A stretch of DNA of 63,369 nt, filler included, from Nemertoderma westbladi (GCA_032718475.1; 3 parts of 3 records of this genome joined end to end with filler, not necessarily neighbours in it); one strand, 5' to 3'. Numbered from the whole stretch's first letter, positions 36,648 to 53,810 are shown. Made by a program: numbers and translations. The notes: generated from the sequence alone by a model not told the origin.

Positions 36648-36823
36648 CCTTCCATGACGAGTTGATGGGCCCGAGCTATAAGTTGCACGCCGTTGCTATG
36701 GTTGAACGTTTCCGATATATCCATGCCGAATGTGTAGCCGGCACCGCGGGGAGAAATACCCCAGCCGCCGCGGTCGTCTGGGTCGGACCACAGCAGATCG
36801 CACATCGGCCCTTCGTGTGGCAC
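36648..36823 (-). CDS. PPP2CA: PP2A catalytic subunit, exon 3
   Basis: [17 protein letters not shown]...[14 protein letters not shown] acceptor; GTTAGT donor in phase 2, matching exon 4. Confidence 0.97.
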
Positions 36824-38248
36824 CTAAACAAACAAAGGAACGTTACAGACAAACAAACATCGGCCCTTCGTGTGGCACCTAAACAAACAACGGAACGTTA
36901 CAGCCCAACAACCATCGGCCCTTCGTGTGGCACCTAAACAAACAAAGCAACGTTACAGACAAACAAACAACGGAACGTTACAGACCAACAAACATCGACC
37001 CTACGTGTGGCACCTAAACAAACAACGGAACGTTACAGCCCAACAAACATCGACCCTTCGTATGGCACGTAAACAGGCAACGGAACGTTACAGCCCAACA
37101 AACATCGGCCCTTCGTGTAGCACCTAAAGAGGCAACGGAACGTTACAGACCAACAAACATCGGCCCTTCGTGTGGCACCTAAACAAACAACGAAATGTTA
37201 CAGACCAACAAACATCGGCCCTTCGTGTGGCACCTAAACAAACAACGAAATGTTACAGACCAACAAACATCGGCCCTTCGTGTGGCACCTAAACAAACAA
37301 CGGAACGTAACAGACCAACAAATATCGGCCCTTCGTGTGGCACCTAAACAAACAACGGAACGTTACAGACCAACAAACATCGGCCCTTCGTGTAGCACCT
37401 AAACAGGCAACGGAACGTTACAGCCCAACAAACATCGGCCGTTCGTGTGGCACCTAAACAAACAAAGGAACGTTACAGACCAACAAACATCGGCCCTTCG
37501 TGTGGCACCTAAACAAACAACGGAACGTTACAGCCCAACAAACATCGGCCCTTCGTATGGCACCTAAACAGGCAACGGAACGTTACAGCCCAACAAACAT
37601 CGGCCCTTCTTGTGGCACCTAAACAAACAAAGGAACGTTACAGACCAACAAACATCGGCCCTTCGTGTGGCACCTAAACAAACAACGGAACGTTACAGCC
37701 CAACAAACATCGGCCGTTCGTGTGGCACCTAAACAAACAAAGGAACGTTACAGACCAACAAACATCGGCCCTTCGTGTGGCACCTAAACAAACAACGGAA
37801 CGTTACAGACCAACAAACATCGGCCCTTCGTGTGGCACCTAAACAAACAACGGAACGTTACAGCCCAACAAACATCGGCCCTTCGTATGGCACCTAAACA
37901 GGCAACGGAACGTTACAGCCCAACAAACATCGGCCCTTCTTGTGGCACCTAAACAATCTAAGGAACGTTACAGCCCAACAAACATCGGCCCTTCGTATGG
38001 CACCTAAACAAACAACGGAACGTTACAGCCCAACAAACATCGGCCCTTCGTGTGGCACCTAAACAAACAACGGAACGTTACAGCCCAACAAACATCGGCC
38101 CTTCGTCTGGCACCTAAACAAACAACGAAACGTTACAGACCAACAAACATCGGCCCTTCGTGTGGCACCTAAACAAACAACGGAACGTTACAGACCAACA
38201 AACATCGGCCCTTCGTGTGGCCCCTAAACAAACAACAATACGTTACAG
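36802..38248 (-). repeat. 55-bp minisatellite (about 26 copies) spanning the exon 3 acceptor
   Basis: Unit = 33 nt of intron ending TTGTTTGTTTAG + first 22 nt of exon 3 (GTGCCACACGAAGGGCCGATGT). Confidence 0.96.
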
Positions 38249-38269
38249 GCGTTACCTCCTTTAACTTAC

Positions 38270-38521
38270 CTCCTGTAATCTATCCAATGCCCGAATGTGA
38301 TCCAGTGTGTCTATACTCGGACTGAGACCGCCGTGTAGACAGAATATTTGGGAATCAACTACGGCAGTGAGCGGCAGATAGTCGAATAAATCGGTGAAAT
38401 ACTTCCAGACGTTCGCGTTACCGTACTTCCGTAGACATTCGTCATAGAAACCGTAGACCTGGGTAATCTGTCGGGACTCGTGGTTGCCACGCAACACCGT
38501 CACTCTCTCTGGATACCGAAC
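38270..38521 (-). CDS. PPP2CA: PP2A catalytic subunit, exon 2
   Basis: [29 protein letters not shown]...LDRLQE; CCTTACAG acceptor, GTAAGT donor; 252 nt, phase 0/0. Confidence 0.97.
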
Positions 38522-38771
38522 CTGTAAGGACCAATGGGTAAAGATATTGCGCTATGTTTATATACCGAACCTGTAAGGACCAATGGGTAAAGATATTGCG
38601 CTATTGTTTATATACCGAACCTGTAAGGACCAATGGGTAAAGATATTGCGCTATTGTTTATATACCGAACCTGTAAGGACCAATGGGTAAAGATATTGCG
38701 CTATTGTTTATATACCGAACCTGTAAGGACCAATGGGTAAAGATATTGCGCTATTGTTTATATACCGAACC
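38513..38771 (-). repeat. 50-bp minisatellite (5 copies) spanning the exon 2 acceptor
   Basis: Unit = about 41 nt of intron ending CCTTACAG + first 9 nt of exon 2 (GTTCGGTAT). Confidence 0.95.
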
Positions 38772-38899
38772 GTTATATAATATAATTTAATTAAATGTAG
38801 CAATCAAGCAAAGCTAGCTAGCAAACAGTCGGCCGAAGCCGGAGGCGACCCGAAGGCTCCTCTTTCGATAGCTGCTACCCGAGGGTAGGGGTGGGCGCT

Positions 38900-50639: not shown

Positions 50640-52228
50640 AACATGGACCAGAGTAGTGTACACACTAACATGGACCAGAGTAGTGTTCACACGAACGTGG
50701 ACCAGAGAAGTGTTCACACGAACGTGGACCAGAGTAGTGTTCACACGAACGTCGACCAGAGTAGTGTTCACCCGAACGTGGACCAGAGTAGTGTTCACCC
50801 GAACGTGGACCGGAGTAGTGTTCACACGAACGTGGATCAGAGTAGTGTTCACACGAACATGACCCAGATAAGTTTTCACACTAACATGGACCAGAGTAGT
50901 GTTCACACGAACGTGGACCAGAGTAGTGTTCACCCGAACGTAGACCAGAGTAGTGTTCACACTAACATGACACAGAGTAGTTTTCACACGAACGTGGACC
51001 AGAGTAGTGTTCACACGAACGTGGACCGGAGTAGTGTTCACACGAACGTGGACCAGAGAAGTGTTCACACGAACGTGGACCAGAGTAGTGTTCACACGAA
51101 CGTCGACCAGAGTAGTGTTCACCCGAACGTGGACCAGAGTAGTGTTCACCCGAACGTAGACCAGAGTAGTGTTCACACTAACATGACACAGAGTAGTTTT
51201 CACACGAACGTGGACCAGAGTAGTGTTCACACGAACGTGGACCGGAGTAGTGTTCACACGAACGTGGACCAGAGAAGTGTTCACACGAACGTGGACCAGA
51301 GTAGTGTTCACACGAACGTCGACCAGAGTAGTGTTCACCCGAACGTGGACCAGAGTAGTGTTCACCCGAACGTGGACCGGAATAGTGTTCACACGAACGT
51401 GGATCAGAGTAGTGTTCACACGAACATGACCCAGATAAGTTTCACTAACATGGACCAGAGTAGTGTTCACACGAACGTGGACCAGAGTAGTGTTCACCCG
51501 AACGTAGACCAGAGTAGTGTTCACACTAACATGGACCAGAGTAGTGTTCACAAGAACGTGGACCAGAGAAGTGTTCACACGAACGTGGACCGAGTAGTGT
51601 TCACACGAACGTCGACCAGAGTAGTGTTCACCCGAACGTGGACCAGAGTAGTGTTCACCCGAACGTGGACCAGAGTAGTGTTCACACGAACGTGGACCGG
51701 AGAAGTGTTCACACGAACGTGGACCAGTGAAGTGTCTCCCGAACGTGGACCGGAGAAGTGTTCACACGAACGTGGACCAGTGAAGTGTTCACACGAACGT
51801 GGACCAGAGTGAAGTGTTCACCCGAACGTGGACCAGAGTAGTGTTCACACGAACGTGGACCAGAGTAGTGTTCTCCCGAACGTGGTTCCAGAGCAGTGTT
51901 CACCCGAACGTGGACCAGAGTAGAGTTCACCCAAACGTGGACCGGAGTAGTGTCACACGAACGTGGATCAGAGTAGTGTTCACACGAACATGACCCAGAT
52001 AAGTTTTCACACTAACATGGACCAGAGTAGTGTTCACACGAACGTGGACCAGAGTAGTGTTCACCCGAACGTAGACCAGAGTAGTGTTCACACTAACATG
52101 GACCAGAGTAGAGTTATGTTCACACTAACAAGGACCAGAGTAGTGTTCACACGAACGTGGACCAGATAAGTGTTCACACGAACGTGGACCAGAGTAGTGT
52201 TCACACGAACGTCGACCAGAGTAGTGTT
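50640..52228. repeat. 27-bp minisatellite, about 59 copies, running into the contig end
   Basis: Unit GGACCAGAGTAGTGTTCACACGAACGT, with variant units recurring in higher-order blocks. Confidence 0.97.
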
Positions 52229-52328
52229 NNNNNNNNNNNNNNNNNNNNNNNNNNNNNNNNNNNNNNNNNNNNTTAATTAATTAANNNNNNNNNNNNNNNN
52301 NNNNNNNNNNNNNNNNNNNNNNNNNNNN
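52229..52328. other. Artificial contig linker
   Basis: 44 N + TTAATTAATTAA + 44 N. Confidence 0.97.
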
Positions 52329-52497
52329 AAGGCGGTGATCACTGGAGAAGGGTCGTATAATGTAATGTAATGCAAGTAGCAGAGTAATGCATTGCACTAC
52401 GTTGCCAATTAATATGTGATTATTAATTATTATTTTGTATCATAATTATTATTGACTTATCTTATTAAAATAAAACTAAATAGCTAATTTTTGTATA

Positions 52498-52764
52498 ATG
52501 TTGATGTTCACAATTTTCAATTGGTTTTGGAATGAGGAGTTTTGGTTGCCACCAGGGAAAGTGTGGAAAGATTTGGAAACAAATTCAGACGATCCGGAAG
52601 GAACTTACTTCCCTAAGTCGGTCCATCTTCTCTACTCTCTACCGGTCGCCTTTATATTTCTATCTGTAAAGCCGATATTCCGAAATTATGTCGGGAAAAT
52701 AGTAGCTCCAGTAATAAATGGAAATAATAAAAAGAAATCTGGGTCAAACCAGACCAATGGATAC
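52498..52764 (+). CDS. CERS: Ceramide synthase, exon 1
   Basis: WFWNEEFWLPPG..W.DL N-terminal signature of CerS2-6; TAC|GTAAGT donor, phase 0. Confidence 0.88.
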
Positions 52765-53810
52765 GTAAGTTACAAACCAGACCAATGGTTACGTAAGTTA
52801 CAAACCAGACCAATGGATACGTAAGTTACAAACCAGACCAATGGTTACGTAAGTTACAAACCAGACCAATGGATATGTAAGTTACAAACCAGACCAATGG
52901 ATATGTAAGTTACAAACCAGACCAATGGGGCAATGGATACGTAAGTTACAAACCAGACCAATGGATACGTAAGTTACAAACCAGACCAATGGTTACGTAA
53001 GTTACAAACCAGACCAATGGTTACGTAAGTTACAAACCAGACCAATGGATATGTAAGTTACAAACCAGACCAATGGATACGTAAGTTACAAACCAGACCA
53101 ATGGATACGTAAGTTACAAACCAGACCAATGGTTACGTTAGTTACAAACCAGACCAATGGATATGTAAGTTACAAACCAGACCAATGGATATGTAAGTTA
53201 CAAACCAGACCAATGGATACGTAAGATACAAATCAGACCAATGGATACGTAAGTTACAAATCAGACCAATGGATACGTAAGTTACAAACCAGACCAATGG
53301 ATACGTAAGTTACAAACCAGACCAATGGATACGTAAGTTATAAACCAGACCAATGGATACGTAAGTTACAAACCAGACCAATGGATACGTAAGTTACAAA
53401 CCAGACCAATGGATACGTAAGTTATAAACCAGACCAATGGATACGTAAGTTACAAACCAGACCAATGGATACGTAAGTTACAAACCAGACCAATGGATAC
53501 ATAAGTTACAAACCAGACCAATGGATACGTAAGTTACAAATCAGACCAATGGATACGTAAGTTACAAACCAGACCAATGGATACGTAAGTTACAAACCAG
53601 ACCAATGGATACGTAAGTTACAAATCAGACCAATGGATACGTAAGTTACAAACCAGACCAATGGATACGTAAGTTACAAACCAGACCAATGGATACGTAA
53701 GTTACAAATCAGACCAATGGATACGTAAGTTACAAACCAGACCAATGGATACGTAAGTTATTTAATAAAAAGAAATCTGGGTCAAACCAGACCAATGGAT
53801 ACGTAAGTTA
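52745..53810 (+). repeat. 28-bp minisatellite (about 36 copies) plus a 50-bp duplication, both spanning the exon 1 donor
   Basis: Unit = last 20 exon nt CAAACCAGACCAATGGATAC + GTAAGTTA; 53763-53810 repeats about 40 nt of the exon end plus the donor. Confidence 0.96.

Follow-up and report, generated by a model that had tools for sequence, protein, structure and literature searches.

Three of the four complete introns in a 63,369-nt stretch of DNA from Nemertoderma westbladi (GCA_032718475.1), the whole of which is called the window here, carry a tandem array that spans a splice junction, and three of the nine defined splice sites are affected. Two of the arrays lie at the acceptors of introns 1 and 2 in a gene for the catalytic subunit of protein phosphatase 2A (PP2A), and the third lies at the donor of the intron in a ceramide synthase (CerS) gene. 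We consider, with a probability of about 0.6, that these arrays are "mirage" minisatellites that arose from ordinary duplication and are likely tolerated because the splice site proximal to the exon is the one joined. This class of arrays is already known from amphioxus and human, and the window provides a dense further case. The window consists of three contigs (1-28230, 28331-52228 and 52329-63369) joined by N spacers, and its G+C content is about 37%.

Anatomy of the junction arrays

The gene models and the arrays are as follows.

40078..40437, minus strand: PP2A coding exon 1, homology to PP2A
38270..38521, minus strand: PP2A exon 2, 252 nt
36648..36823, minus strand: PP2A exon 3, 176 nt
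36254..36647, minus strand: PP2A intron 3, without an array; contains a high-copy dispersed repeat
36064..36253, minus strand: PP2A coding exon 4, from the gene model and run contigs
38513..38771, minus strand: acceptor array of PP2A intron 1; unit of 50 bp, 41 intron and 9 exon-2 nt
36802..38248, minus strand: acceptor array of PP2A intron 2; unit of 55 bp, 33 intron and 22 exon-3 nt
36936..36994, minus strand: 25-bp intron-only sub-duplication (branch point and pyrimidine tract) inside one 80-nt unit of the intron-2 array
38224..38269, minus strand: remainder of PP2A intron 2, from donor to first acceptor, 46 nt
52498..52764, plus strand: CerS coding exon 1, from the gene model and homology
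55590..56348, plus strand: CerS coding exon 2, TLC domain
52745..53760, plus strand: CerS donor array; unit of 28 bp, 20 exon and 8 intron nt
53764..53813, plus strand: second copy of a CerS 50-bp junction duplication, 39 exon and 11 intron nt, containing the 36th decoy donor

The four PP2A exons, on the minus strand, encode 325 aa without an internal stop, and the three introns (1556, 1446 and 394 nt) all have GT..AG ends. The protein is 88-90% identical to its six best stored homologs with 0 gaps, and exon 1 shows approximately 85-88% identity to many animals, to which it is about equally near. The two CerS exons, on the plus strand, encode 341 aa around a GT..AG intron of 2825 nt; the protein shows 30-35% identity to homologs across the exon junction, and the closest named match of the CerS exon is a bryozoan protein (45%).

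The array of PP2A intron 1 comprises 5.2 copies that are 99% alike, with the real acceptor and four decoys, all of which retain AG. At its far end (38762-38771) the 10-nt junction word occurs once more without AG, and represents either microhomology at which the duplication started or what is left of an older, truncated copy. In intron 2, the intron part of each unit contains a branch-like TAAC, a pyrimidine tract and AG, and the array thus presents 26 acceptors, namely 25 decoys (24 with AG) and the real site at 36823/36824. Of the 1446 nt of this intron, 1400 belong to the array, and the 46-nt remainder is likely to correspond to the intron as it was before the array. The arrays account for 97% of intron 2, 13% of intron 1 and 37% of the CerS intron. 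The CerS array has 36 copies, with 35 decoy donors (34 with GT) behind the real donor at 52764/52765, and sits nested in the 50-bp duplication, whose second copy adds one more; GT is kept in 35 of the resulting 36 decoys of the CerS intron.

This dissection confirms what the sequence-only reading had described, namely junction arrays in three of four complete introns with units of 50, 55 and 28 bp and a separate 50-bp duplication. That reading had also seen a signal in the fact that no unit length is a multiple of three. Such an outcome has P=0.30, and all 65 decoys (4, 25 and 36), including those in frame, lead to an early stop; the point therefore carries no weight.

Genomic DNA and the joined splice site

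The PP2A region was found in five sequencing runs from three studies, four of which were aligned over the portion from exon 4 as far as the initial repeat units of intron 2. Two DNA runs from different studies, X1 and X2, cover the introns evenly, at depths of 12-14 and 22-29, respectively. Contigs composed of intron-2 units reach a depth of 175 in X1 and a summed depth of up to 1276 in X2, which indicates many copies but yields no copy number. X2 shows substitutions and indels relative to the window and thus represents a different haplotype or individual; the window may itself have come from the X1 sample. Since the intron-2 array is seen in both DNA runs, one of them with other alleles, it is not an assembly artefact.

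That the arrays are nevertheless artefacts, or repeats collapsed or inflated in assembly, is very improbable. The majority unit in X1 has a depth about 14 times that of single-copy sequence, roughly twice the 7.5 times predicted from the window, and the read evidence concerns the PP2A intron-2 array. Against these points stand the unit depths from two studies, the distinctness of 19 of the 24 55-nt units, and one X2 contig of single-copy depth whose five differences suggest that it fits the donor-side end of the array. Two other observations were made on these runs. Insertions of 2 and 6 nt at 35715 and 35807, in the 3' region of PP2A, are present in X2 and in a further run, X4, and absent from X1, and are polymorphisms against the window. 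The dispersed repeat in PP2A intron 3 exceeds a depth of 10,000 at 36365-36409 in X1 and X2.

Two runs labelled "DNA?", X4 and X5, which come from two studies, give contigs that are confined to exons and from which PP2A intron 3 is precisely missing, and for this reason we read them as RNA-like. In both X4 (depth 4997) and X5 (depth 78), the contigs depart from the window at 36825, and the letters beyond this position are those with which exon 2 ends (38272-38301 in the window). Because the contigs run from exon 3 straight into the end of exon 2, the acceptor joined in PP2A intron 2 is the last of the 26 and the farthest from the donor. Over the bins of the intron-2 array no X4 depth is listed, and X5 gives only unit contigs of depth 1-5. 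The earlier expectation that one site must be chosen among many near-identical ones is thus borne out for this intron, with one of 26 present in the assembled product. For PP2A intron 1 and CerS, reading frame and homology suggest that the exon-proximal site is likewise used. The real sites are not marked by RNA folding, as their unpaired probability (0.43-0.49) lies within the range of 0.33-0.53 with which it was compared.

All three arrays consist of head-to-tail units containing an exon-intron boundary, the copies are intronic and many retain AG or GT (4/4, 24/25 and 35/36 decoys), and for PP2A intron 2 the X4 and X5 contigs represent a normal mRNA made from the authentic exon-proximal site. 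These are among the properties of mirages, which are described in amphioxus for Adh3, the globins BflGb6 and BflGb9, troponin C and PGBD5 in the accessible text of PMC3087553 and PMC3902484, and both anatomy and outcome match the arrays here. The same portions describe the mirages as not disturbing splicing, and that of PMC3087553 calls their origin unclear. The present arrays differ in copy number (26-37 in PP2A intron 2 and CerS, against 3-6 in amphioxus BflGb6), in occurring in an intron-poor invertebrate, and in that one of them makes up 97% of its intron.

The CerS array shares its build with human donor-spanning variable number tandem repeats (VNTRs), whereas both PP2A arrays are at acceptors. 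According to the available portion of PMC1557585, these VNTRs occur in F7 IVS7 (37 bp), CBS IVS13, intron 2 of 6-16, LMNB2 and PDGF intron 4; the first unit spans the exon-intron boundary and is followed by up to 25 pseudo-donors. The most upstream donor is used in F7, where it is the only one, and in LMNB2 and PDGF, while CBS and 6-16 also make use of the two pseudo-sites that follow.

The partial use in CBS and 6-16 bears on a functional interpretation, in which decoy use followed by degradation, or slowed splicing, would let the copy number tune the dosage of PP2A or CerS. This appears unlikely. Every decoy leads to an early stop and the dinucleotide is kept in 24/25 and 35/36 decoys, but the decoy signals are no better kept than the rest of the unit: the decoy AG is changed at 1/48 and the decoy GT at 1/68 positions, against 53/1320 and 20/952 positions of the respective units, where units are not independent and changes are few. 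As these changes occur at the background rate, neither removal nor upkeep of decoy signals is seen. Moreover, only the normal join was assembled for PP2A intron 2, no folding difference marks the real site, and in the accessible text on amphioxus (PMC3087553, PMC3902484) mirages are reported without aberrant mRNA. Among the functions suggested earlier, intron growth stands for PP2A intron 2, whereas splicing delay and dosage control coupled to nonsense-mediated decay (NMD) find no support. Apart from making the introns longer, no role has been demonstrated for the arrays.

Stepwise removal of the PP2A arrays by recursive splicing, in which AG/GT decoy acceptors would regenerate a donor, has very little probability. 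GT follows 24 of the 25 intron-2 decoys and all four intron-1 decoys, and the final mRNA would match the X4 and X5 contigs. However, the regenerated donors resemble the GTRAGT-like real donors of the window in little beyond GT, the first intron-2 decoy is AG followed by GG, and the CerS donor array cannot work in this way.

Origin of the junction arrays

We counted arrays with a period of at least 20, at least four copies and a length of at least 150 bp, of which the window contains seven. Three of these each touch one of the nine defined splice sites, and random placement over the whole window reached at least three junction matches in 7 of 200,000 shuffles (P=3.5e-5). The earlier view that random minisatellite birth rarely strikes junctions this often therefore holds within the window. 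This excess is weakened by the fact that the window was picked for the pattern from among some 250,000, with only three arrays at issue, and by the dependence of the null expectation on intron length. Among tolerated duplications of 50-55 bp, the fraction spanning a junction is 100% for a 46-nt intron, 90-95% at 60 nt and 6-7% at 1.5 kb.

The arrays probably formed in the following manner. A duplication of 28-55 bp would first span a splice junction, and in some cases such events would have been repeated, one of 50 bp preceding one of 28 bp in CerS and one of 25 bp preceding one of 55 bp in PP2A intron 2, with subsequent expansion by slippage or unequal exchange. By geometry, extra copies would land on the intron side while the exon-proximal site stays in use, and for this reason an array would always begin at the junction. 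Exon definition would likely select the site giving the normal, shortest exon. Any products that leak through contain an early stop and would probably be broken down, NMD serving as a second safeguard. Duplications internal to an exon would be purged, so that the survivors in a gene with short introns would be mostly junction-spanning.

Several points weigh against this reading. When placement is restricted to the two genes, with today's introns freed of arrays and exon-internal placements excluded, only 6-11% of tolerated duplications span a junction, and three of three then has P=6.6e-4. Even with the arrays removed, PP2A intron 1 measures 1.36 kb and the CerS intron 1.79 kb. In addition, intron 1 contains a decayed inverted-repeat element resembling a miniature inverted-repeat transposable element:

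39385-39762: decayed inverted-repeat element in PP2A intron 1, 378 bp, arms 67% self-complementary

The array of this intron, with copies 99% identical, looks younger than that element, unless homogenization keeps the copies of an old array alike. Because the other introns are long and the intron-1 element looks older, the case for a short founding intron applies to PP2A intron 2 alone. With regard to tolerance, human 6-16 and CBS use their nearest pseudo-donors, according to the available portion of PMC1557585, and assembled contigs lose rare forms while degraded products are invisible, so that they reveal the main product and do not speak against some use of decoys.

The main rival is a bias in the founding events, in which the arrays would be of the mirage class but duplications would be directed to splice junctions by transcription-, splicing- or chromatin-coupled lesions or by recombination; examples are DNA breaks at the edges of exons and slippage of the polymerase there. 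We regard such a bias as possible, though far from probable. The two P values (3.5e-5 for the whole window, 6.6e-4 within genes at today's intron lengths) and the fact that two junctions were struck more than once speak for it. They are countered by the choice of the window from some 250,000 with n=3, by the absence of a common motif or length among the units, by the four of seven arrays that lie away from junctions and thus indicate that arrays are common here anyway, and by short introns, which yield the same pattern without bias. The arrays with units of 27, 31, 56 and 20 bp do not reach any defined junction in the window. Similarly doubtful is a process of this lineage that amplifies splice junctions as such, by which most introns of expressed genes would grow from very small ancestors by copying their own splice sites; if it were true, PP2A intron 2 would be its extreme, a 46-nt intron grown 31-fold with 25 decoys passed by the spliceosome.

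The sequence-only reading had offered either coupled mutation or function, and while the excess it pointed to holds in the window, it missed a third possibility that we find likelier, namely that ordinary duplications persist if they span a junction, above all in short introns. In the literature that we searched, from which subscription papers mostly fell outside, no genome-wide test of junction enrichment was found. We also considered a 9-nt sequence that lies 14 nt downstream of the intron-2 donor and echoes it, and rejected it as not significant (background 137/5000 positions, nine junctions tried).

The arrays might alternatively record the birth of the introns through tandem duplication of an AG/GT site, the model of Rogers. 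PP2A introns 1 and 2 do lie at exonic AG/GT, and the mechanism has been shown to be possible for ATP2A1 in the accessible part of PMC3265369, where, as here, there is tandem duplication at AG/GT with an unchanged protein. In that case the new intron comes from exon sequence, whereas in PP2A the copies of an existing junction lie in an intron that other eukaryotes have at the same position. An intron born in this way would be made of duplicated exon and have no counterpart in relatives. The PP2A units contain real intron sequence and one exon side only, and the donors are unique and not exon-derived. Among 80 PP2A-related loci compared (the best 80 of 567, including transcripts and intron-poor genes), an array-free intron occurs at the intron-1 position in L004 and L033 and at the intron-2 position in L066, i.e. 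in three loci of other eukaryotes; four of the seven candidates originally flagged (L070, L075, L078 and L079) were dropped as false. Because L004, L033 and L066 share the positions without arrays, intron birth is disfavored, and we consider it highly improbable.

Surrounding features and implications

The ninth splice site of the window comes from a gene of the p24/TMED family, whose earlier exons were not found on the contig:

34291-34476: p24/TMED gene, last exon only

Upstream of this exon are an MFS gene without introns (28981-30246, minus strand) and decayed frames resembling long interspersed nuclear elements (approximately 31300-34130). P450 (23062-24336) and DUF4750 (13650-13958) genes are also apparently intron-less, and the genome appears intron-poor. 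A THAP/P-element-like transposase frame (20740-22095, minus strand) lies within 19918-22400 and is flanked, by eye, by inverted repeats of approximately 70 bp, and an element in which a 10-bp palindromic repeat is abundant occurs, again by eye, twice in near-identical form (6800-7380 and 14630-15220). Among the arrays away from junctions, the 27-bp array (50640-52228, approximately 59 copies) reaches the contig end and opens a repetitive frame of 391 codons, for which two Pfam rows were obtained with no passing stretch. The units of the 56-bp array (17861-18826) and the 31-bp array (2484-3057) carry donor-like words, on the plus and the minus strand, and their flanks look, by eye, non-coding or similar to dispersed repeats.

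Arrays of this type can lead gene prediction and the mapping of reads astray. Acceptor choice can be studied cleanly in PP2A intron 2, a natural system in which joining of the most donor-distant acceptor agrees with exon definition and does not fit a choice of the first AG from the donor. With three of four complete introns affected, this genome is well suited to testing whether splice junctions are targeted.

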